A stretch of 64,000 nucleotides of DNA from assembly GCA_028282585.1 (NCBI GenBank), contig JANQHR010000126.1:1-64000 (forward strand), written 5' to 3'. Source of the DNA: Bacteroidales bacterium (lineage in GTDB: Bacteria; Bacteroidota; Bacteroidia; Bacteroidales; UBA12077). Below the pieces are notes generated by a model. The model was not told the origin of the DNA and did no database searches. It worked only from the letters and a program-made list of their open reading frames with translations. Below, in pieces: positions 45,758-56,631 of the stretch (position 1 is the first letter of the stretch; every line of letters starts with the position of its first letter). Both the position numbers and the translations under genes were made by a program.

Positions 45758-46378
45758 ATGTTAAAAAAAGAACATATTGCAGCAAAAATTCTTAGAGATT
45801 TAACCTGGCATTTTGCAGGAAAAGACAATGAACTTTTCTTAACTTTTGATGATGGCCCTTCTCCTGAGATTACTCCATGGGTGCTATCTATATTAGCGGA
45901 GTATGACGCAAAGGCAACTTTTTTTTGTATAGGAGGCAAAGTAGATAGAAATCCGAGTTTGTATGAACAAATATTGAAAGAAGGACATTCCGTAGGAAAC
46001 CATGGATATTTGCACATGAATGGATGGAGAACAGGAACCGATAAGTATGTTAGAAATGTTTACAGAGCAGCACATTTTATAAATTCGGATTTATTCAGGC
46101 CTCCTTATGGGAGGATTCGTCCAAAACAAATTACTCAATTAAAAAAAGAGTTTAGAATTGTAATGTGGGATGTACTATCAGGTGATTACGATAAAAAAGT
46201 TAATGAAGTAAGGTGTTTGTACAATGTTCTATCTTATGCCGAATCAGGATCAATCATTGTTTTTCATGACAATATGAAGTCTGAGAAAAACCTAAAGTAT
46301 GTTTTACCAAAAGTGCTTGAGCATTTTACGAAAAAAGATTTTATATTTAATTCAATAGAGTATAAAAAAATAGATTAA
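45758..46378 (+). CDS. Polysaccharide deacetylase (CE4/NodB)
   Basis: LTFDDGP, ATFF, GNHGYLH, FRPPYG, VFHD. Confidence 0.92.
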   Translation: MLKKEHIAAKILRDLTWHFAGKDNELFLTFDDGPSPEITPWVLSILAEYDAKATFFCIGGKVDRNPSLYEQILKEGHSVGNHGYLHMNGWRTGTDKYVRNVYRAAHFINSDLFRPPYGRIRPKQITQLKKEFRIVMWDVLSGDYDKKVNEVRCLYNVLSYAESGSIIVFHDNMKSEKNLKYVLPKVLEHFTKKDFIFNSIEYKKID

Positions 46379-47544
46379 GATCTTTTATTAAAAAGGAACT
46401 TATAAATTAACAAAAAAGGTCTTAAAAAATAATAAATAAAAAATAGAGAGTCTTTTATTTTTACTATTTCCCAATCAGACAGATGTGTTCTAAGTCGAAA
46501 CAATAAATCCAGATAATATTTAGAATCTTTTTTAAGTTTTAGTCTGTAAAAAACAAACTTCAGTTTTCCTAAGATATTTTTTTGACTAATATCTTTGGTG
46601 TTTATAGAGTTTAAAGGCATTCTTATTAAGGCAGGTTTTATATTAAATTCGATAAAATTTATCTCTTTAGTATGATATATCTTATTCGAAAGCATACAAG
46701 CCTGAATAAATGTTTTATCTAGTTTTAATTTCTTAGATAGGTCGAAAGCAGATTTTAATTCATTTTCATTGCTTTTTGTAATTGAAACAGAAAAATCTTT
46801 TAACCAAAATAATCTATACCATTGATGAATACTTCCATGCGCAGCCTGATAAACTAAGTTTTCAGTTTTAGAGATATAAGGTAATTTGTAATTTGAAACC
46901 TTCAGGTTTTGTTTGTTAGAGATGATATTATTTGTTTCTAATCCTAAAAATGATTTAGGGTTAGTCATATTCCAATGCAGTTCAATTTCAATTCCTTGAA
47001 TTGAATGGACAAAATGATAATGATGACTTATGCCATAATTGATTTTTTTTTGTTTTTCTGTTAATTTTATAGAAGGATAGACACAGATAAAATTAAAGTC
47101 TTCAATGATTTTTTTTGCTCTTTCAGTATCGCTGTTTTTTACTAAAACATCAATATCCCTGAAATTTCTAAAACCGATATCATTGTATAAATCGATTGAA
47201 AGCAATGGACCTTTAAAGAAACAGTGCTCTATATTTTGTTTATTAAATTCCTCATGAATCCTTATCGCATGTATCGCAAAATTTAAAGCACGTTTTGAGT
47301 GTTCTAACCGGATTTCTATTAATTTTTCGTAAACAGGGATAGGTATTTTTTCTGCTAAAAAAGTAGAATGTTTTAATATATGTGATATGACTCTGTGTTT
47401 AATGGCAAGCTCAAAAAAGTCATCCCAATCAATTTTGGAAAGATCTAATTGATAGTCACTCTCTAATTTATTTTGTGTAAGGTAAATTATAAGTTTGAGT
47501 TCTTCTGAAAATTTTGAACTCATATAGCTTTTTATTTTATTCAT
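46375..47544 (-). CDS. Nucleotidyltransferase family protein (NTP_transf_5-like), lasso-cluster tailoring enzyme
   Basis: FKG, R..RDIDVLV, IELHW, H..IH.W.RL.WL.D motifs; start overlaps the cyclase stop by 4 nt. Confidence 0.85.
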   Translation of the reverse strand: MNKIKSYMSSKFSEELKLIIYLTQNKLESDYQLDLSKIDWDDFFELAIKHRVISHILKHSTFLAEKIPIPVYEKLIEIRLEHSKRALNFAIHAIRIHEEFNKQNIEHCFFKGPLLSIDLYNDIGFRNFRDIDVLVKNSDTERAKKIIEDFNFICVYPSIKLTEKQKKINYGISHHYHFVHSIQGIEIELHWNMTNPKSFLGLETNNIISNKQNLKVSNYKLPYISKTENLVYQAAHGSIHQWYRLFWLKDFSVSITKSNENELKSAFDLSKKLKLDKTFIQACMLSNKIYHTKEINFIEFNIKPALIRMPLNSINTKDISQKNILGKLKFVFYRLKLKKDSKYYLDLLFRLRTHLSDWEIVKIKDSLFFIYYFLRPFLLIYKFLFNKRS

Positions 47545-49409
47545 TTAAACATGGTTGGATTATTTTCAATAAACAGAATTAATTTTAAATAGTTATAAAA
47601 TGCTCCGGGGTTTATATCCCGATATTTTTTTTCTGATCTTTTACGTAATTTATTAAACCATTGTTCGTATTTATTTACATCAATATATTGGGTAATTAAT
47701 TTATTTGATTTTGCCCTTGTAATAATTTCAAGAATTTGTTCCGAATCATTCATCATTCGCATATGAACAGTAGGAATTGTTGCCCCACTTTTATCATTTC
47801 TCCATTGAATTTTTTCAGGAACTATTCCTTCAAGTGATCTTCGAATCAGGTATCTGCCGATTCCGTTTCTAGCTTTCAACCTGGTTGGAACGGATAAATA
47901 ATATTCGATTAAACGGATATCAAGTAATGGATATCTATATTCGATACCATAGTTTCTTGCTATCAAAGAACAATATTCAAGACGCTGTGATACATGCTGA
48001 TGTGTAATTCTTTCAATATTTCTTTGTTGTAGTCCGGTTATATTTAATTTTTGATAATTAGAATAATATCTTTCCTTTATTTTATGTTTTTCTAAAAAAA
48101 ATGGATTGATTGCCAGGTTTTTAAATTTATAAGTCCACCAGGGTTTTTTAAATTTTAGTTTTAAAAGAATCGGGAAACGGGATTTTAAAAAAACTTTAAG
48201 ATACCTTTTTAGATAATTTAAATAATTGGGATATTGATTTTTGAGATCAACCTTAAGTTCTTTCCATTTTTTATTTGCAGCCAATTCATTTAAATATCCC
48301 GAAGATTTTGAGGTAACTACTTCATCGCCACCAAATCCAGAAAGTAAAACAGTTATATTTTCTTGCTTTGCTTTTTCGTATAACTGATCAGAAAATACAC
48401 CAAAATTTTGCTGAAACAAACTTCTGGTCTCACTTACATTTTGTTTTAATGTTTTGAGTAAAGATTTCTCTGATGTTATAAAATTTCGATTCTCTATTTT
48501 ACTATAATTCGCTAATAGATTTATAAAATCCCGTTCATCTTTAAAGGGATGAATTTTTCCAAATAAATGGTCTGGTAAAACATGAGAAAATGATTTAACT
48601 GGAAGAAAGTTTGAGGCTATAGCCATAACACAAGATGAGTCAATTCCACCGCTTAATTCTGCGCCAACCGATTCCACGTATTTGGTTCTGCAACTAACAG
48701 ATTCAAATAGCAAGTGTTTAAAATCGTTAATTATATCAACATCTTTTTTTTGAACTTCCCTTTTAGTGTTTAGTACCCAATATGATTTTATATCGAGCTT
48801 ATTATTTTTTAATATAAGAATGTGTGCCGGAGGTAATTTCTTAACTTCGGCATAAGTTGTTCGGAATTTTTCCGATTTTACAATAGAAATTGTATCGGCG
48901 ACTTGTTGATTGTCAATTGAAAAAACAAGATCGGTTTGTTCTAAAATGCTAGCGACATCGGTTGAAAAAACAAATGAGTCTTTATTAAAATAATAATGAA
49001 AGGGTTTTATTCCCAAATGATCACGAGCACAGAAAAGCTCTTCGTTTTTTGAATCCCAGATCGCGAAAGCAAAATCACCGATTAGGTAATTTACGCATTT
49101 ATTTCCCCATTTTATATATGCTTCTAAAATGATAAAATCATCACTGAGGCCTTTATTAATTTCTAAATCTCTGATGATTTCATTTCTATTGTAAATAACA
49201 GAATCAGAAACCAGGATAAAACCTGCATAATTTAAAATGGGTTGGTTTTCAAAAGGTGGGAAAAGTACTAGCCCAAAACCAGAGTGATTTTCTAGTGTAA
49301 ATTGAGATTTATTTTTTAAATAAACGGTAAGTTTTTTGATACTTTTCTTAAAAAGCTCTTGGTTTATAGGTTCTGTGTTAACGTTTACTCTTCCAAATAT
49401 AGACCGCAT
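47541..49409 (-). CDS. Lasso peptide cyclase (asparagine synthetase-like C protein)
   Basis: ARDHLGIKP, LSGGIDSS ATP loop, LSGFGGDE, YRYPLLD; no N-terminal Cys2; neighbours are B1/B2 genes. Confidence 0.88.
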   Translation of the reverse strand: MRSIFGRVNVNTEPINQELFKKSIKKLTVYLKNKSQFTLENHSGFGLVLFPPFENQPILNYAGFILVSDSVIYNRNEIIRDLEINKGLSDDFIILEAYIKWGNKCVNYLIGDFAFAIWDSKNEELFCARDHLGIKPFHYYFNKDSFVFSTDVASILEQTDLVFSIDNQQVADTISIVKSEKFRTTYAEVKKLPPAHILILKNNKLDIKSYWVLNTKREVQKKDVDIINDFKHLLFESVSCRTKYVESVGAELSGGIDSSCVMAIASNFLPVKSFSHVLPDHLFGKIHPFKDERDFINLLANYSKIENRNFITSEKSLLKTLKQNVSETRSLFQQNFGVFSDQLYEKAKQENITVLLSGFGGDEVVTSKSSGYLNELAANKKWKELKVDLKNQYPNYLNYLKRYLKVFLKSRFPILLKLKFKKPWWTYKFKNLAINPFFLEKHKIKERYYSNYQKLNITGLQQRNIERITHQHVSQRLEYCSLIARNYGIEYRYPLLDIRLIEYYLSVPTRLKARNGIGRYLIRRSLEGIVPEKIQWRNDKSGATIPTVHMRMMNDSEQILEIITRAKSNKLITQYIDVNKYEQWFNKLRKRSEKKYRDINPGAFYNYLKLILFIENNPTMFK

Positions 49410-49423
49410 ATATTCGTTTTAAG

Positions 49424-49496
49424 CAAAGATAAGCAATTTACGCAAGTGTCTTTAAACAACTGAAAACAGGATTTTATCTGTTTTTCAATAAATTTG
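49424..49496. promoter_or_regulatory. Divergent promoter region of the lasso cluster
   Basis: TATCTTTG on minus (49424-49431), TAAATTTG on plus (49489-49496), imperfect inverted repeat tgaaaacag/ctgtttttca between them. Confidence 0.5.
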
Positions 49497-49513
49497 TGTT
49501 AGTTTGCACTAAA

Positions 49514-50410
49514 ATGAAAAAGAAATTTACATATAAAGCATTTGGCTTAATTTTTAACTCGGATTTTGAAATTCCGGAACTCTTAACCGGATCAGGCGAT
49601 ACTGGCATAAAAATCGAGTTGGGGAAGACTCCAAATCAACTTCAAAAAATTACTAATAAAGGAGTAAAATATGAAGCAACTAAAAATGAATTTTTGCTTC
49701 AGGTTGATCACATAGCAAGATATTATGTTCAAGACGGCGAGAAAATAACCATAGAATTATTAAAAGATAAAGTTGATAAAGAAGTTAGGTTGTTTTTGTT
49801 AGGTTCTGCATTTGGTTCTCTTTTTCTTCAAAGGGGATTGCTGCCGATCCATGGGAGTAGTATTAAGTTCAAAAACTTTGCAACTATATTTACAGGCTTA
49901 AGCGGTGTTGGAAAATCAACTATAGCGGCACATTTTGTTAAACTATCTTATCAGGCTTTGGCAGATGACATTAGTGTTATAAATCACCAATTGCAAGTTG
50001 CGCCTGGTTTTCCAAGTTTGAAAATATGGAATGATGTTTTGGAAAAATTGGAAATTGACAGTGAAAAATTAAATCAAATAAGGCCAAATTTTAAAAAGTT
50101 TCGTGTACCGGTTAATGAGCAATATTATTCCGAACCAGTTCCATTGAAAAATATCGTGATTCTTAGCACAAAAAACTCTCCGGGATTTGAAATCGAGGAG
50201 TTAAACGGAATTAAAAAGTTTACTGCAATCAAGAATAATACCTATCGATATCGATTTGTTCAGGGGCTTGAAAAACAACTGGATCATTTTCAGATTCTTG
50301 ATAAGCTCTTGCCGAAAATAAAGGTTTATAAAGTTTCAAAACCACAGGCCCCATTATTGTTAGATGAATTAGGTGATTTTTTATTACAGAAAATTGAATT
50401 AAATGTCTAA
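49514..50410 (+). CDS. HPr kinase-like lasso peptide kinase (PadeK/ThcoK type)
   Basis: Y.AFGL...S.., LQRG..PIHGS, GLSGVGKST P-loop, ADD, PGFP.LKIW; start refined to ATG 49514. Confidence 0.88.
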   Translation: MKKKFTYKAFGLIFNSDFEIPELLTGSGDTGIKIELGKTPNQLQKITNKGVKYEATKNEFLLQVDHIARYYVQDGEKITIELLKDKVDKEVRLFLLGSAFGSLFLQRGLLPIHGSSIKFKNFATIFTGLSGVGKSTIAAHFVKLSYQALADDISVINHQLQVAPGFPSLKIWNDVLEKLEIDSEKLNQIRPNFKKFRVPVNEQYYSEPVPLKNIVILSTKNSPGFEIEELNGIKKFTAIKNNTYRYRFVQGLEKQLDHFQILDKLLPKIKVYKVSKPQAPLLLDELGDFLLQKIELNV

Positions 50411-51269
50411 GAAAAATATCATATGGTTGGCTAGTTATCCGAAATCGGGAAATACTTGGTTTCGTATTTTTCTTACTAATTTGTTATACGAATCAGATGA
50501 TCCTGCGAATATCAATGATTTAGCTGAAACCTCCATTTCCAGTTCGCGAAAGATATTTGATGAATACACAGGCCTTTCATCTTCCGATTTAACTTTTGAG
50601 GAAATTGATACATTACGTCCTTATGTTTATCGTATACAATCAGAGGAAAGCAATGAGCTATTGTTTAAAAAAGCTCATGATAAGTTTTATAATGTGAATA
50701 AAAATCAACCCTTGTTTCCACCGGAAGTTTCAAAAGGAGTCATTTATTTTATTCGTAATCCATTGGACGTATTAGTTTCTTTTGCATATCACAGTGCTAA
50801 ACCTATTTCAAGAATGCTACCTTCACTAAATAATTCAAAATATGAATTTTGTGGAAGAGATAACAAATTACAAAATCAGTTAAGGCAAATACTAGGAAGC
50901 TGGTCTGGTCACGTTTGTAGTTGGATCAACCAGGATTTAATTCCGATTCATATCATGAGGTATGAAGATATGATCAATGATACTTTTAATACGTTTAAAC
51001 ATGCCGTACAATTTATTGGATTGAAAAAAACGGATAAACAAATAAAAACGGCCTTGGCAAAAAGTAGTTTTTCAGTTTTATCGAAACAGGAAAAAAAGGA
51101 TGGTTTTAGGGAAAAAATGATTCGCACAAAATTTTTTTTTCGTAAAGGTCAAATAGGTGATTGGAAAAACCATTTAAGTGAACGGGAGGTAGAAAAAATT
51201 GTTTTAAACAATAAAGAAATTATGTTGAAATTCAAATACTTGGACAGTAATTACAAACCTATATTTTAA
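50403..51269 (+). CDS. PAPS-dependent sulfotransferase (Sulfotransfer_1)
   Basis: WLASYPKSGNTW 5'-PSB, RNPLDVLVS 3'-PB, RYED, FFRKGQIGDWK. Confidence 0.92.
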   Translation: MSKKNIIWLASYPKSGNTWFRIFLTNLLYESDDPANINDLAETSISSSRKIFDEYTGLSSSDLTFEEIDTLRPYVYRIQSEESNELLFKKAHDKFYNVNKNQPLFPPEVSKGVIYFIRNPLDVLVSFAYHSAKPISRMLPSLNNSKYEFCGRDNKLQNQLRQILGSWSGHVCSWINQDLIPIHIMRYEDMINDTFNTFKHAVQFIGLKKTDKQIKTALAKSSFSVLSKQEKKDGFREKMIRTKFFFRKGQIGDWKNHLSEREVEKIVLNNKEIMLKFKYLDSNYKPIF

Positions 51270-51270
51270 A

Positions 51271-51561
51271 ATGGTTAAAATAAAATTAACGGAAAATACT
51301 TTAATAAAGAGAAAGAATAGTATTCTAGCCAGTGATTTGGATGGGGAAAAGGTTATGATGAGTATCCAAAAAGGTGAGTATTATGGTTTAGGGAAAACGG
51401 GAACTTTTATTTGGGATCACATTGAAAATTACATCTCAATTAGTGATTTAATAACTTTAATTACAGATAAGTATAATGTAAAGAAAGAGCAATGTTTAAA
51501 AGATATTATTCCTTTTATAACGGACCTTATTGAAAAAGAGCTTATTATTGCAACCAATTAG
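51271..51561 (+). CDS. Lasso peptide RiPP recognition element (B1, PqqD family)
   Basis: DLDGEKVMM..QKGEYYGL..TGTFIW, Y.V..EQC..D...F...L. Confidence 0.92.
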   Translation: MVKIKLTENTLIKRKNSILASDLDGEKVMMSIQKGEYYGLGKTGTFIWDHIENYISISDLITLITDKYNVKKEQCLKDIIPFITDLIEKELIIATN

Positions 51562-51592: not shown

Positions 51593-52033
51593 ATGATGTT
51601 CAAACAGATAAAGAAATATTGCAGCTTAGATAAAACTGAACGTAAAATCTTGAATCGAACTTTTTTTTGGTTAATTTATGCTTTTGTACTGGTTCGATTA
51701 ATACCTTTAAAATGGTTTAATTCAATTTTAGGGGAATATAACAACGTGGTTGAAGTAACTTTAAACACAAAACAACTACAGTTAATTTTTGTGGTTAAAA
51801 AAAATATAAGAAGAGTAAAAAAACATTTACCCTGGAAAGTTAAGTGTTTTGAAGAAGCAATAACAGCAAAAAAATTACTGGAAATGGTTAATATAAAATC
51901 AACACTTTACTTAGGAGTCAGAAAAGGGAGTAAACAGACCTTAAAAGCTCACGCCTGGTTGAAAAGTGGAGATAAATTTGTTAGTGGAGAAAAAGGATAT
52001 AAAAGTTTTGTGACGGTTGGATTTTATACTTGA
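51593..52033 (+). CDS. Lasso peptide leader peptidase (B2, transglutaminase-like)
   Basis: PW..KCFEEA catalytic Cys, LYLGV, AHAWL catalytic His. Confidence 0.92.
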   Translation: MMFKQIKKYCSLDKTERKILNRTFFWLIYAFVLVRLIPLKWFNSILGEYNNVVEVTLNTKQLQLIFVVKKNIRRVKKHLPWKVKCFEEAITAKKLLEMVNIKSTLYLGVRKGSKQTLKAHAWLKSGDKFVSGEKGYKSFVTVGFYT

Positions 52034-52059
52034 TTATATGACACTTATGGAAGATTATA

Positions 52060-52088
52060 AAATTTGCATTAAATTTGATTTAAATTTG
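52060..52088 (+). promoter_or_regulatory. Three AAATTTG direct repeats at 11-nt period upstream of the precursor; two are full -7 elements
   Basis: AAATTTG at 52060, 52071 and 52082. Confidence 0.45.
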
Positions 52089-52099
52089 AAAAAAGTGAG

Positions 52100-52258
52100 A
52101 TGATGAAAGAAAAGAATGTAAATAAGGAAACTAGTCAACCATGCAATAAACTTGAATGGGAAGCTCCAAGATTATATTGTTTAGATAAAGGAAAAACAGA
52201 AGGGGGAACCTTTAGCGGATATGCTGAAGGTGTAACATATAATGGTACAGCATCGTAA
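52100..52258 (+). CDS. Lasso peptide precursor, 52 aa: MMKEKNVNKETSQPCNKLEWEAPRLYCLDKGKTE-GGTFSGYAEGVTYNGTAS
   Basis: Translated by hand (below the ORF-track cutoff); WxxPxL leader motif, Thr at -2, Gly1, Glu9, C-terminal Ser; directly after B2. Confidence 0.88.
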   Translation: MMKEKNVNKETSQPCNKLEWEAPRLYCLDKGKTEGGTFSGYAEGVTYNGTAS

Positions 52259-52270
52259 ATTTGTTTTATA

Positions 52271-55200
52271 ATGAGAAAAGTTTTATATTTCTTAGGCATC
52301 ATTCTTATTCCATTAAATTGTTTTAGTCAGGCATGGATTGTGTCTCAGCATCTAAAAAGTGATAATGATTTAAGAATCTTAGATATTAAAAAAGATGCTG
52401 GTAATAATGTTTATGTTACTGGTATTTTTAAAGGCACATATAATGGTAATACTTCTGAAGGTCTTTTTGATATATTTCTGGCAAAGTTTAATAGTGATTT
52501 AAATAAAGAGTGGATTCAAACGGTAGGAAGTTCATCTGTTGAATTCGACCCTAGGATTACTTTAGATGCAGCAAATAATATTTTTTTAACGGGCGCTTTT
52601 AGAGACAGCTGTGTTTTTGATGAAAATATATATTTAAAAAGTGACGGTAACTACGATATTTTTCTCGCAAAGTATTCGAATGTAGGAAATATTATATGGG
52701 CAAAAAATATTGCTAATTATCCAACGCAGCAAAATCCGACTGATATAGATGTTGATGGTAACAACGATCTAATAATAACAGGTCACTTTTCAGACTCTAC
52801 GTATCTTATAAATCAAAAAATAGTTAGTTCAGGAAGGAATAGTTTTTTTGCAAAAATTGATACCAGTGGAACTAAAATTTGGGTTAATTATGTGCCAGGA
52901 AATAATATATCTTCAAGAATTAATAATATTAAAGTGTACCAAGATGAATATTATTTTAATGGGTACTTTAGAGATGAGATGTACTTTGATATTGAAACAA
53001 TTACTAGCAATATACCAGGTCAACAGGATCTTTTTATTTATAAAACAGACATAAATGGCAATGGATTATGGATAAGAAGAACTTATGGTGATAATTTAGA
53101 TGCTACTGGTTCTATTGCTGGAGATAATTATGGTAATGTTTACTTTACAGGGTACTTTCAAAGCTCAACATTAGCGGTAGATTCAACTGATATTAGTTTA
53201 TCTAGTCAGATTTTAACCAATAATAATGATTTTGATATTTTCATATTAAAGTACAATAAAAATGGTAACCTACAGTGGAATAAACAATTTGGACTAAATG
53301 GTCGTGATTACGGTGTTGATGTGAATGTCAATAATGATATTTTATACATGTCAGGTTATTTTAGCGATACTATAGCTTTTGGTGAATATTCACTTGAATC
53401 GACAGGAACAGGGGATAGAGATATGTTTATAACTGTTATGGATCTAAATGCGAAGACTTTTAATTCCATATCTCTGGGAGGGATTGATGGCAATGACCTT
53501 GCTGCTGGCGCTTTGGTTTTAGAAGACGGAGATGCAATCATTAGTGGTTATTTTCAATCATCCAGTATTTCTGTTGGAGATAGCTTATTCATGAATGCTT
53601 CACCTGGTTTTAGGGATGGAATAGTTGCAGAATATAGGCCACCATTATCTGCAGTTTTTTCAAACGTTGAAAATATTGCCTGTAATTCAGATAATGATGG
53701 AGAGCTTACAATAACTGCTGAGTTTGGACAAAAGCCTTATACGTATTCCTGGAGTCATGATGGAGGTTTAACCGATTCTACTGCAATAGGGCTTTCTGCT
53801 GCAACTTATACAGTTACAGTTACAGATGCTGTTGACTCAACGGCGGTGGTAAGTTACGATTTAACTGAACCGGATGAAATTACGTTTAATCCATTGGTTA
53901 CCCAGGTAAGTCAATGCAGTTACTCAAAAGAAGGAGTTATTGATTTAAATGCAGCAGGAGGAAATGGAGGATATACATATCAATGGCAGGCGAGCGAAGG
54001 AGGAGATGGTATTGTGTTAAGCGCAGAAGACCAATCAGGTTTAGCTATTGGTAGATACGATGTAACAATAACTGACACAGAATTATGTACAAATGATACT
54101 ATAACTTACATTACCGGACCGGCACCAATTACGTTTGGAGGTTCTGTTGTAACTGATTCTTCGGGGATAGGTCCCGGAGCTATTGATTTATCATATACTG
54201 GTGGATCTGGAAGTCCTGCTTCTTTTACATTTGATTGGATTGGCCCATCAGGTCCTCCAGCTACTCATTCTGAAGATACTTCCAACTTGAGTCCTGGAAA
54301 TTATAGTGTTACTGTTACAGATGTTCATCTTTGTGAGTTTGATACAACCTTTAATGTTGCAAATTTGGATACATTTTATATATTTATTTCAGACCAAAAA
54401 GATGCTTGTTTAGGAACTATTAATGGTAATGCAACGGTTAGCTTTTCTTCACCTAAAGGACATACGTTAATTAACTATTTATGGGATGTAAATGCAGGAA
54501 GCCAAACAACGGCAAAAGCAACTAATTTAGCTCCCGGGAGATATTATAAAGTTACTGTTACTGATACTGAGAATACGCCGAATACAACTTTAGTTGATAG
54601 TGTATATATAGATGAGTTAATATATAATTTGGCAGGTTCATTGTCAGGTACAACAACACTGGATTGTTACGGTGATACGGATGGTTATATTGATTTAACC
54701 ATAACCATAGCTGGAGAGTTGCCCTATACTTATAATTGGAGTACAGGTTCAAACTTACAGGATATTACCGATCTTGGAATAGGAAATTATAGTGTTACAG
54801 TTACTGATGATAATGAGTGTACTTTTTCAATTACAAACTATGCTATAAACCAGCCGGAACTTTTAACAGCTTCTGCTGAAATTATAAACGAACCTTCTTG
54901 TAACGGGGATTTTGATGGTGAAGTAACTGTTGATAGAAACGGAGGGACAGCACCTTACACGTACCAATGGGATGACCCCGGATTTCAAGATACCCGCAAT
55001 GCAGATGGATTAGATGCTGGCTATTACACTGTAACTGTTACGGATGTAAATAATTGTATGACATTATCTGGAATTAATTTAACCGAACCAGATGTAGTTT
55101 CAATTAGTAAAGTAATAAGTGATGAGATATGTAATTCAGCAGGAGAAGGAGCAGTTACATTAACAACAACGGGAGGTACGGATCCTTTTGGCTATTCTTG

Positions 55201-56584
55201 GACTACAACTGATGGTTCAGGATTAATATCTTCTAATAAAAATCAGACCGGGCTTACAGCAGGGAAATATTATTTTACAGCAACCGATAATAATGGTTGT
55301 GCTTTTATGGATAGTGCTGAGATAACGGAACCTGAATTACTTCAAATTACCAATGAATCCAAAACAGATGTGAATACCTGTAATGGTGATAACACTGGTA
55401 CCATAACAATCGCAGCATCAGGAGGTACAGGTATTTTAACTTATACATTAAATCCTGGAAATATTCAAACAAATAATACAGGGGCATTTACAAGTCTTGG
55501 TGCTGGTAATTATACAGTAAATGTTGAAGATGAAAATGCATGTGCAGTAGCTTCAAGTTCTCTGAGTATAGCAGAACCGGCTTTATTAATAATTACTAGG
55601 AATGATGTAAATGATGCAACTTGTTATGGAATTAATAATGGGAATATTGACATTAATGTGTCCGGAGGAACAATTTCATCAGGATATACTTTTAATTGGA
55701 CAACTTCGGATGGTTCTGGACTAGTTGCAGGTTCAGAAGATCAGCCAAGTTTAGGAAATGGGACCTATGATTTAACTGTAACTGATGATAATTTATGTTC
55801 GGATAATACAAGCTTTGTGTTAACAGAACCTGAAGCTATTATAGTTAATAAAACAGTGTATGAGCCATCATGCAATGATGATAATGATGGAACTGTAATA
55901 GTTACACATTCTGGAGGAACTTTACCTTTTTCGTATTTTTGGACAACAACAGATGGAAGTGGCTTAGATCCGGTTTATCGAAACCAAGGTGGATTAAGCC
56001 CGGGAACGTATTATTTAGAAATTACAGATGCTTTAGATTGTATAATTAACGAAGCTGTTACAATTACAGCGCCATCTATAATTACTATAGATTCTCAGAG
56101 CTCTACTGATGCAACCGATTTTAATACTGCTGACGGAACAATTTCAGTAACTGCATCCGGAGGTACAAGTACATTGACTTATGTATTAAGACCAGACGAT
56201 ATTTCGAACCAAACCGGTACTTTCAATTCATTATTACCTGGTGAATATGTAATAGAAGTTGATGATATTTATTTTTGTGGACCAATAACAACAGATACTA
56301 TTACTATTGGAGCAATTAATTCAGTTAATTTAATTTTTGCAGGAGATTTTATTAAAGTGTTTCCTAATCCAACATCAAGTAAAGTATTCGTGGAAATAGA
56401 TATGAATGCTACCTTTAAATTAGAACTCGCTAGTATGTCTGGACAAATCTTATATCAGGATGAAATAATCACAAATGGATTTATGAAAGAAGAGATTGAT
56501 CTTTCCTCATTTACAAAAGGGATTTATTTGCTGAGAATATATAATAATGAATATTACTTAACAGATAAGCTTATATTGCAGTGA
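52271..56584 (+). CDS. T9SS type-A cargo: N-terminal beta-propeller (SBBP-like) repeats plus SprB repeats
   Basis: Signal peptide; GNxYxTGxF / DIFLAKY repeats; C...DG.I....GG..PY.Y.W...L.AG.Y.VTVTD repeats; VFPNP...KGIYLL CTD. Confidence 0.9.
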   Translation: MRKVLYFLGIILIPLNCFSQAWIVSQHLKSDNDLRILDIKKDAGNNVYVTGIFKGTYNGNTSEGLFDIFLAKFNSDLNKEWIQTVGSSSVEFDPRITLDAANNIFLTGAFRDSCVFDENIYLKSDGNYDIFLAKYSNVGNIIWAKNIANYPTQQNPTDIDVDGNNDLIITGHFSDSTYLINQKIVSSGRNSFFAKIDTSGTKIWVNYVPGNNISSRINNIKVYQDEYYFNGYFRDEMYFDIETITSNIPGQQDLFIYKTDINGNGLWIRRTYGDNLDATGSIAGDNYGNVYFTGYFQSSTLAVDSTDISLSSQILTNNNDFDIFILKYNKNGNLQWNKQFGLNGRDYGVDVNVNNDILYMSGYFSDTIAFGEYSLESTGTGDRDMFITVMDLNAKTFNSISLGGIDGNDLAAGALVLEDGDAIISGYFQSSSISVGDSLFMNASPGFRDGIVAEYRPPLSAVFSNVENIACNSDNDGELTITAEFGQKPYTYSWSHDGGLTDSTAIGLSAATYTVTVTDAVDSTAVVSYDLTEPDEITFNPLVTQVSQCSYSKEGVIDLNAAGGNGGYTYQWQASEGGDGIVLSAEDQSGLAIGRYDVTITDTELCTNDTITYITGPAPITFGGSVVTDSSGIGPGAIDLSYTGGSGSPASFTFDWIGPSGPPATHSEDTSNLSPGNYSVTVTDVHLCEFDTTFNVANLDTFYIFISDQKDACLGTINGNATVSFSSPKGHTLINYLWDVNAGSQTTAKATNLAPGRYYKVTVTDTENTPNTTLVDSVYIDELIYNLAGSLSGTTTLDCYGDTDGYIDLTITIAGELPYTYNWSTGSNLQDITDLGIGNYSVTVTDDNECTFSITNYAINQPELLTASAEIINEPSCNGDFDGEVTVDRNGGTAPYTYQWDDPGFQDTRNADGLDAGYYTVTVTDVNNCMTLSGINLTEPDVVSISKVISDEICNSAGEGAVTLTTTGGTDPFGYSWTTTDGSGLISSNKNQTGLTAGKYYFTATDNNGCAFMDSAEITEPELLQITNESKTDVNTCNGDNTGTITIAASGGTGILTYTLNPGNIQTNNTGAFTSLGAGNYTVNVEDENACAVASSSLSIAEPALLIITRNDVNDATCYGINNGNIDINVSGGTISSGYTFNWTTSDGSGLVAGSEDQPSLGNGTYDLTVTDDNLCSDNTSFVLTEPEAIIVNKTVYEPSCNDDNDGTVIVTHSGGTLPFSYFWTTTDGSGLDPVYRNQGGLSPGTYYLEITDALDCIINEAVTITAPSIITIDSQSSTDATDFNTADGTISVTASGGTSTLTYVLRPDDISNQTGTFNSLLPGEYVIEVDDIYFCGPITTDTITIGAINSVNLIFAGDFIKVFPNPTSSKVFVEIDMNATFKLELASMSGQILYQDEIITNGFMKEEIDLSSFTKGIYLLRIYNNEYYLTDKLILQ

Positions 56585-56600
56585 TAAAATAACATATTTG

Positions 56601-56631
56601 AAAAAAGCTCTCACCATGAGAGCTTTTTTTT
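56601..56631 (+). terminator. Rho-independent terminator
   Basis: aaaaaagctctca-cca-tgagagctttttttt. Confidence 0.88.

Follow-up and report, generated by a model that had tools for sequence, protein, structure and literature searches.

A short open reading frame (ORF) at 52100-52258 on the forward strand of the window (the whole 64,000-nucleotide stretch of DNA analyzed here) is, judged from its sequence and its setting, very probably a genuine lasso peptide precursor gene. This reading, made in the original prediction from the letters of the DNA, is supported by a genomic context of B1, B2 and cyclase genes, by the motif in the leader, and by conservation across an entire family of related precursors. 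By analogy with characterized systems, the product would likely belong to class II of the lasso peptides, among those tailored by a kinase and resembling paeninodin, and would be made by an uncultured member of the Bacteroidales.

The precursor gene and its family

Re-translation of the window returned exactly the frame, the leader and the core that had been written down before: an ATG-started ORF of 52 aa (gene A), in which a leader ending in LEWEAPRLYCLDKGKTE is followed by the core GGTFSGYAEGVTYNGTAS. Two ATGs lie side by side at the start of the frame, and the precursor probably begins at the second (52103), giving a product of 51 aa, since this ATG lines up with a Met that is common to all 20 aligned homologues. 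Numbering backward from the cleavage site is unaffected by the choice between 52100 and 52103. The leader (52100-52201, forward strand) spans 34 aa and carries K-18, W-15, P-12, L-10, L-7, D-6 and T-2. The predicted core (52202-52255, forward strand) would contain a Gly1-Glu9 isopeptide ring, with Tyr13 as candidate plug and Ser18 as candidate phosphorylation site, assignments that follow from homology to paeninodin and pseudomycoidin. The exact precursor protein is present in a metagenome protein collection as the product of the window's own DNA, and its homologues, where the source gives a name, are called 'hypothetical protein'. An ORF on the opposite strand (52135-52302) was also considered as a real gene and was ruled out, as conservation runs in the forward frame.

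On the evidence of conservation, the ORF is real, far beyond what chance would give, because homologues occur in the genus, in 17 public loci and among 170 metagenome proteins, with recurring neighbors. A six-frame search at a setting of E ≤ 10 covered the other 55 genomes in the taxonomic family and matched 31 of them; within the genus, 23 of its 36 other species gave a match. The 25 best matches (E ≤ 1e-3, the one in G000 itself included) are short open frames, 49-77 aa in length, whereas the weaker ones, among them a 796-aa frame that recurs, have the look of chance hits. All 20 of the loci that were fetched hold an ORF whose leader is the same as in the window. Conservation beside related clusters had been proposed as a check on the ORF, and it holds: the leader motif, the terminal Ser and the same neighboring genes recur in relatives. 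In the closest relative (L021), identity to the window is 68% for the precursor and 61% for the SprB-repeat gene that follows it (see below), and 86-94% for the flanking genes.

When public genomes were scanned, 40 sites matched the pattern, and 17 of them were confirmed as loci. The titles of the confirmed loci name Bacteroidales (9), Bacteroidetes (3), Bacteroidota (3), and Calditrichia and Thiohalospira (one each); the last two entries, short contigs carrying the same cluster, are probably mis-binned. A profile built from 20 precursors found 170 matches at E ≤ 1e-3 in a collection of 5.8 billion proteins, the best near 1e-20, and 46 cluster representatives, all of the Bacteroidales type, in a library of 1.84 billion. 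These 46 representatives include no paeninodin-type precursor from Bacillota, a result to be read with the proviso that short, fast-evolving peptides may be beyond the reach of the profile; the likeness to Bacillota precursors that we describe is one of motif positions. The profile matched no PDB chain at E ≤ 10.

Applied to 400 other Bacteroidota genomes, sampled evenly, the profile of precursors gave one weak match (E 0.003), which has an internal stop and is probably due to chance. The lasso B2 model matched 31 of the same 400 genomes, and by this measure lasso clusters are not rare in the phylum. Small ORFs with the leader motif were also sought beside 10 other Bacteroidota B2 genes, and none was convincing within loci of about 3 kb, an outcome that is uninformative on those clusters. 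Among the genomes searched, the precursor family occurs only in the window's own taxonomic family.

The anatomy of the family can be described from 120 listed metagenome proteins, which reduce to 117 unique cores. The spacing from Trp to Thr is constant in all 120. W-15, L-10 and L-7 are each present in every member of the unique-core set, D-6 in 116 of 117, and K-18 in 114, with Arg in the remainder. The (Y/W)xxPxL motif that the original prediction had pointed out is W20-E-A-P23-R-L25 in the window, and Thr33 stands, as was claimed, at -2 relative to the proposed cut. The same prediction had singled out two Cys residues in the leader as unusual; these carry no signal, as Cys15 lies in the unconserved amino-terminal part and the site of Cys27 (position -8) is occupied by C, S or A (56, 37 and 19 of 117, respectively).

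[quoted passage not shown] Core length ranges from 14 to 20 aa, with a single outlier of 33 aa, which is also the sole core without a terminal Ser; Ser ends the other 116, and it does so in all 20 species loci. Of the 117 cores, 115 have Glu as the ring acceptor, and none contains Cys. Tyr occurs four residues after the acceptor in 69 cores, which makes the proposed role of Tyr13 as a plug plausible. In the family as a whole, roughly one core in five has its sole candidate acceptor at position 10.

Enzymes, neighboring genes and transcription

The precursor lies at the end of a run of biosynthetic genes, K-ST-B1-B2-A, with two further genes, N and C, divergent from it. B2 (51593-52033, forward strand) encodes a leader peptidase of the transglutaminase-like Cys protease type (PF13471, E 8e-17; NF033537, 72.3 bits against a cut-off of 33), with Cys85 and His120 present in all 19 aligned sequences. 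B1 (51271-51561, forward strand) encodes a PqqD-like leader-binding protein, or RRE, that matches PF05402 and scores 96.3 bits against the cut-off of 80 of the lasso chaperone model NF033536. Its best match among solved structures is 9x90_B, a paeninodin-like RRE (entry 9X90, E 1.2e-17); TbiB1 and TfuB1 score lower.

The kinase gene K (49496-50410, forward strand) encodes an HPr-kinase-like protein that is predicted to phosphorylate the carboxy-terminal Ser. Its match to Hpr_kinase_C (PF07475) is weak, with an E-value of 4.7e-5 that lies under the gathering score, and its matches to HprK-related NCBIfam models likewise fall under the curated cut-offs; PDB searches gave marginal HprK matches only (E 0.06). 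His119, the P-loop G134-x-S-G-x-G-K140-S and D157-D158 are, however, invariant in 17 sequences, and by motif description this is the His-Lys-Asp-Asp set of the lasso kinases. PadeK and ThcoK, according to a 2022 review, phosphorylate the conserved carboxy-terminal Ser of their precursors, and the H-K-D-D motif is essential. The nearest Atlas neighbors of the kinase are Bacillota HprK-like clusters (score 0.97), which we take as a lead only. Ser18 as a site of modification is thus strongly supported in sequence terms, both by the near-universal terminal Ser and by the H/K/D/D residues of the kinase. The cyclase gene C (47541-49409, reverse strand) encodes an Asn-synthetase-like macrolactam synthetase with a GATase_7 domain and a PF00733 match above the gathering score (E 1.4e-43). 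It matches the lasso cyclase model NF033535 with an E-value of 4.5e-115, yet its 385.7 bits fall short of the 525-bit cut-off; its SGGxDS PP-loop is invariant in 13 sequences.

Two further genes encode putative tailoring enzymes. The product of ST (50403-51269, forward strand) is a PAPS-type O-sulfotransferase of the Sulfotransfer_1 type (PF00685, E 6e-28), and its PDB matches are cytosolic SULTs (E down to 1.6e-17) and the glycopeptide sulfotransferases Teg12 and Teg14 (about 1e-10). The PAPS-binding motifs RxGxxxDW and PKSG are conserved among the 17-19 sequences aligned; since the genome encodes an APS kinase, the sulfate donor PAPS should be available. N (46375-47544, reverse strand) encodes a PsmN-like nucleotidyltransferase (PF14907, E 9.7e-46) with D130 and D132 shared by all 13 aligned sequences; it matched no PDB chain at E ≤ 1. 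The alignments behind these statements comprise 17-19 sequences for K, B2 and ST, and 13 for N and C. The seven genes are all full length, with catalytic residues retained, and from their sequences the cluster enzymes look active.

The order ST-B1-B2-A-SprB-repeat gene is preserved in all 17 public loci. K is present in 16 of them, the exception being a 3.4-kb contig that ends at that point, while C adjoins the cluster in 13 of the 17 and N in 12. In one subclade C is not adjacent and is found on a separate contig at about 50% identity (four of four genomes tested), with unrelated genes upstream of K. More distant relatives in two other genera (L040 and L041) retain the precursor followed by the SprB-repeat gene. 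At the outer edge of the cluster, a polysaccharide deacetylase gene (45758-46378, forward strand; PF01522) and a TMEM260-like gene were considered as members and judged to be flanking genes; the deacetylase gene, whose membership is doubtful, keeps its place beside the TMEM260-like flank in locus L036, which has no adjacent N and C. The genes upstream of the TMEM260-like flank and downstream from purD are housekeeping or cell-envelope genes where Pfam names them.

The SprB-repeat gene (52271-56584, forward strand) encodes a T9SS-sorted surface protein of 1437 aa, with nine PF13573 matches and one to PF18962. It begins 12 nt past the precursor stop and follows the precursor in all 17 public loci. 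No terminator-like site was found between the two genes, and a terminator-like hairpin of 14 pairs plus a T run (56600-56630, forward strand) closes the K-ST-B1-B2-A-SprB unit. From this arrangement, the SprB-repeat gene is probably co-transcribed with the precursor.

In addition, the spacer between B2 and A contains two TAAATTTG boxes on the forward strand (52070-52077 and 52081-52088, together spanning 52070-52088), both perfect copies of TAnnTTTG, which we take to be the Bacteroidetes-type -7 promoter element. Of 20 related loci, 17 have a TAnnTTTG box in the 110 nt that precede the start of the precursor, in most cases as TAnnTTTGCA at -44/-45, with the proviso that related species are not independent. 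The conservation of this TAnnTTTG(CA) box suggests that the precursor may have a promoter of its own. A scan for sigma-70 promoters returned 43 sites against 37.3 expected, and is uninformative for Bacteroidota. Among the ORFs scanned between 34735 and 60439 of the window, none contains an ABC transporter domain, and no isopeptidase was found over the same interval (about 34.7-60.4 kb).

Proposed maturation and alternative readings

By analogy with characterized lasso pathways, maturation may proceed as follows. The HprK-like kinase would act first, in the manner of PadeK and ThcoK, and phosphorylate the Ser18 side chain while the precursor is still linear. B1 would bind the W-15/P-12/L-10 motif and hand the leader to B2, which would cleave after Glu34, with Thr at -2. 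The Asn-synthetase-like cyclase would then activate Glu9 and join it to the amine of Gly1, to form a 9-residue ring threaded by a 9-residue tail, and the lock would be Tyr13, a bulky modified carboxy terminus, or both. The PsmN-like enzyme may attach one or more hexoses to the phosphate. The sulfotransferase may O-sulfate a hydroxyl, for which Tyr13 would be the best candidate because it is the most conserved hydroxyl of the tail and relatives of the enzyme sulfate phenols and alcohols.

The mass of about 1719.74 Da that had been calculated by hand for the cyclized, unmodified 18-mer is right: the computed monoisotopic value is 1719.7376 Da. The expected masses with one modification are 1799.7040 Da for the phosphate and 1799.6945 Da for the sulfate, 9.5 mDa apart. 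With both groups the peptide would weigh 1879.6608 Da, and with a phosphate plus a hexose 1961.7568 Da. As for the '+80 Da' species proposed earlier, the cluster also encodes a sulfotransferase, and a phosphate (+79.966) therefore has to be separated from a sulfate (+79.957).

The best-supported register, and in our view the probable one, is that of the original prediction: a cut after Glu34, a Gly1-Glu9 ring and a core of 18 aa. It is supported by the leader numbering that it gives, which equals that of the paeninodin-like PbaA leader, crystallized in complex with PbaB1 and described with the same WxxPxL motif (K-18, W-15, P-12, L-10 and L-7). It also places Thr33 at -2, where Thr is described as invariant in lasso leaders. 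It is the second Gly of the core, not the first, that is invariant: the first residue after T-x is G in 106 of the 117 cores, N in 6, S in 4 and T in one, with A, D and K in more distant members, and the second is Gly in all 117. Characterized relatives, too, have a variable residue 1 before Gly2: the pseudomycoidin core is described with A1, G2 and D9 as the ring-closing residue, and it shares with the window's peptide the acceptor at position 9 in addition.

The invariant Gly is also what gives substance to a register shifted by one residue, in which the same gene and pathway would be kept and B2 would cut after Gly35 (T-E-G|G). This would yield a 17-mer core, GTFSGYAEGVTYNGTAS, with an 8-residue Gly-Glu ring and a cyclized mass of 1662.7162 Da, one Gly below the 1719.7376 Da of the longer core. 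The Gly found in 117 of 117 sequences would then become residue 1, in place of the variable G/N/S/T/A/D/K, and the conserved Glu would lie at position 7, 8 or 9 in all 117 cores. For natural lasso peptides, rings of 7-9 residues are the only range reported, and in the Glu34 register 20-22 of the 117 cores have no Asp or Glu at 7-9 and an acidic residue only at 10. Those acceptors would mean 10-residue rings, unknown in nature; Glu9 of the window's own peptide falls within the 7-9 range for Asp or Glu. The shifted cut would, however, move Thr to -3, away from the position described as invariant, and the leader numbering would depart from the W-15/P-12/L-10 of PbaA, while pseudomycoidin offers a described precedent for a non-Gly residue 1 before Gly2. 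The fusilassin enzymes, which build a 9-residue ring, accept changes at position 1 and a ring larger or smaller by one residue (8-10), including an unnatural 10-residue ring, and with this tolerance in mind a spread of acceptors over positions 8, 9 and 10 around a 9-residue ring is not far-fetched. On balance we regard the shifted register as a possible but rather unlikely alternative to the cut after Glu34.

Two other readings concern the fate of the peptide rather than its register. It might be processed and (poly)phosphorylated and yet stay linear, or branched-cyclic and unthreaded, in the manner of the linear polyphosphorylated peptides (LPP) or of purified wild-type pseudomycoidin, which is described as having behaved as a branched cyclic peptide. 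The LPP clusters are described as sharing the RRE, the HprK-like kinase and the NTP transferase, and as lacking a cyclase; the 9-residue tail here is short and has few bulky residues besides Tyr13. Against this stand a cyclase and a B2 that are present, intact and conserved, the near-constant acceptor Glu and the frequent Tyr four residues beyond it. The LPP clusters, moreover, are described with a signal-peptidase-like enzyme in place of B2 and with Y-16 in the leader, where the present family has W-15. We therefore consider an unthreaded product very unlikely. It is less likely still that the ORF, though conserved, is silent or decaying in the window's genome, with neither expression nor maturation. 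The lack of an exporter gene among the ORFs scanned nearby would fit such a state, but seven full-length genes with their catalytic residues, the strong constraint on the leader across 117 sequences and the promoter-like box in 17 of 20 loci all argue for a working cluster.

Relation to known lasso peptides

Of the characterized systems, paeninodin from Paenibacillus dendritiformis C454, together with the related PbaA-PbaB1 pair, resembles the present cluster in its split B1/B2, its Asn-synthetase-like cyclase and its HprK-like kinase. Sulfotransferase and nucleotidyltransferase genes, as well as the split B protein, have been described in paeninodin-type clusters of Firmicutes. A 2026 paper treats paeninodins as restricted to Bacillota, and names a nearly invariant Trp in the leader motif as their hallmark; here the same Trp, W-15, is found in every sequence of a family whose host is an uncultured Bacteroidales bacterium. 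The two systems also differ in gene order, which is C-A-K-B1-B2-D for paeninodin, whereas N and C are here divergent from K-ST-B1-B2-A; in the ABC exporter D, which has no counterpart among the ORFs scanned around the cluster; and in the ring, which is described as Ala-Asp in paeninodin and is predicted to be Gly-Glu here.

[quoted passage not shown] Its kinase is described as (poly)phosphorylating the terminal Ser, and PsmN, which is of the PF14907 type, as needed for a hexose on the phosphate, a proposed lock. A D134A/D136A double mutant of PsmN is reported to be inactive, and the DxD metal site that these residues form is shared by the window's nucleotidyltransferase (D130/D132). The pseudomycoidin cluster, in contrast, has an ABC transporter (PsmD) and no sulfotransferase, and its core is unrelated to that of the window. 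Fusilassin, from Thermobifida fusca, shares a 9-residue ring closed on Glu9; it is made without kinase-type tailoring, and the window's B1 matches TfuB1 weakly (E 0.0011).

The original prediction had not recognized the core as that of a described lasso peptide, and our searches agree with it. Literature on lasso peptides combined with Bacteroidetes, Bacteroidota, Bacteroidales or sulfotransferase yielded no description of this family, with the caveat that large mining tables may already list it. The nearest sequences are two metagenome proteins (P0003 and P0005), whose cores are identical save for V11A and whose overall identity is 77-78%, with differences mostly in the leader. In a survey of RiPPs in Bacteroidales, lasso peptides are mentioned only in the reference list and the glossary. 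LassoPred counts 47 non-redundant solved lasso structures (PDB accessed in April 2024) from three phyla, of which Bacteroidota is not one, and places Bacteroidota among its predicted lasso peptides. The role of the sulfotransferase in lasso clusters is called only 'putative' in a 2021 review, and the 2022 review of modifications omits that enzyme.

The group to which we assign the peptide is thus a known one, that of the phosphorylated, kinase-tailored, paeninodin-type lasso peptides. What is unusual is the host phylum, the absence of an exporter gene nearby, the linked T9SS surface protein and the candidate 10-residue rings of relatives. The pairing of a W-15 'paeninodin-type' leader with its RRE is extended outside Bacillota, and for a first example from Bacteroidota there is now a concrete precursor, together with a complete set of enzymes and the exact masses to look for. 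A kinase and a PsmN-like enzyme occur here alongside a sulfotransferase, an enzyme whose role in lasso clusters has been called only 'putative'. The family is in addition a natural experiment on ring size, with an identical leader and an acceptor at position 8, 9 or 10, and could show whether natural 10-residue rings exist.

More tentatively, and with rather less than even confidence, the pieces may be put together as a family confined to Bacteroidales, whose lasso peptides would be tailored in three ways (phospho-, glyco- and sulfo-). About a fifth of its members would close a 10-residue macrolactam, and the family would lack a dedicated ABC exporter and be co-transcribed instead with a fast-evolving SprB-repeat surface protein secreted through the T9SS. 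If this is true, it would hint at a surface-linked or T9SS-linked role for these peptides, rather than that of a free bacteriocin.

Regions flanking the precursor

In the window and in the related loci L021-L037 and L040-L043, the gene directly after that of the candidate lasso precursor (window 52100-52258, + strand) always encodes a large protein with SprB repeats and a T9SS sorting domain (window 52271-56584, + strand). In the window, only 12 nt lie between the precursor stop and the start of this gene, and the first terminator downstream is at 56600-56630. Of all genes at the locus, the SprB-repeat gene evolves fastest, with identities of 35-61% versus 66-88% for the next gene, purD.

Upstream, comparison of 20 related loci reveals a TAnnTTTGCA box about 44 nt 5' of the precursor start that is conserved in most species. 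The homologous copy in the window (within 52034-52099) contains one additional A, and is followed on its 3' side by two perfect copies of TAAATTTG.

Cyclase placement and contig binning

In one subclade (loci L032, L035 and L036; genomes G042, G043, G048 and G054), the Asn-synthetase-like cyclase is separated from the genes for the kinase, sulfotransferase, RRE protein, leader peptidase and precursor, and is found on a different contig with about 50% identity. In this subclade, the kinase is preceded instead by fumarase, nitroreductase and ArsC-family genes. The genome of the window itself contains a further Asn-synthetase-like gene (contig C91:38280-39206; 615-aa frame) that shares 29% identity with the cyclase and is probably an ordinary asparagine synthase.

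Two of the related loci, L031 and L032, lie on short contigs of 3.4 and 9.3 kb that were assigned to Calditrichia and Thiohalospira bins, yet both hold this same Bacteroidales-type cluster at 45-70% identity. Their placement probably reflects mis-binning rather than gene transfer.

Divergent precursors and ring size

The most distant precursor relatives (P0149, P0151, P0152, P0154, P0156, P0157, P0160 and P0161) lack the carboxy-terminal Ser and have a near-terminal Ser followed by one to four additional residues (for example, ...SQ, ...SQA and ...SP), which hints at carboxy-terminal trimming or another tailoring site. Another distant relative, P0153 (92 aa), encodes two tandem leader-plus-core units in a single open reading frame. 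The 11 stretches of P0150 (3921 aa) that match positions 11-23 of the precursor profile are probably a repeat or low-complexity artefact.

Counting from the predicted cut that leaves Thr at -2, position 10 carries the sole Asp/Glu among positions 7-10 in 20 of the 117 unique cores (22 of 117 under an alternative acceptor assignment); examples include loci L014, L016, L017 and L019 and proteins P0007, P0009, P0015 and P0017, among others. Leader spacing in these relatives is the same as ever. Lasso rings of 10 residues are not known in nature. The position-10-only cores would either form 10-residue rings or else imply that the leader is cut one residue later throughout the family.
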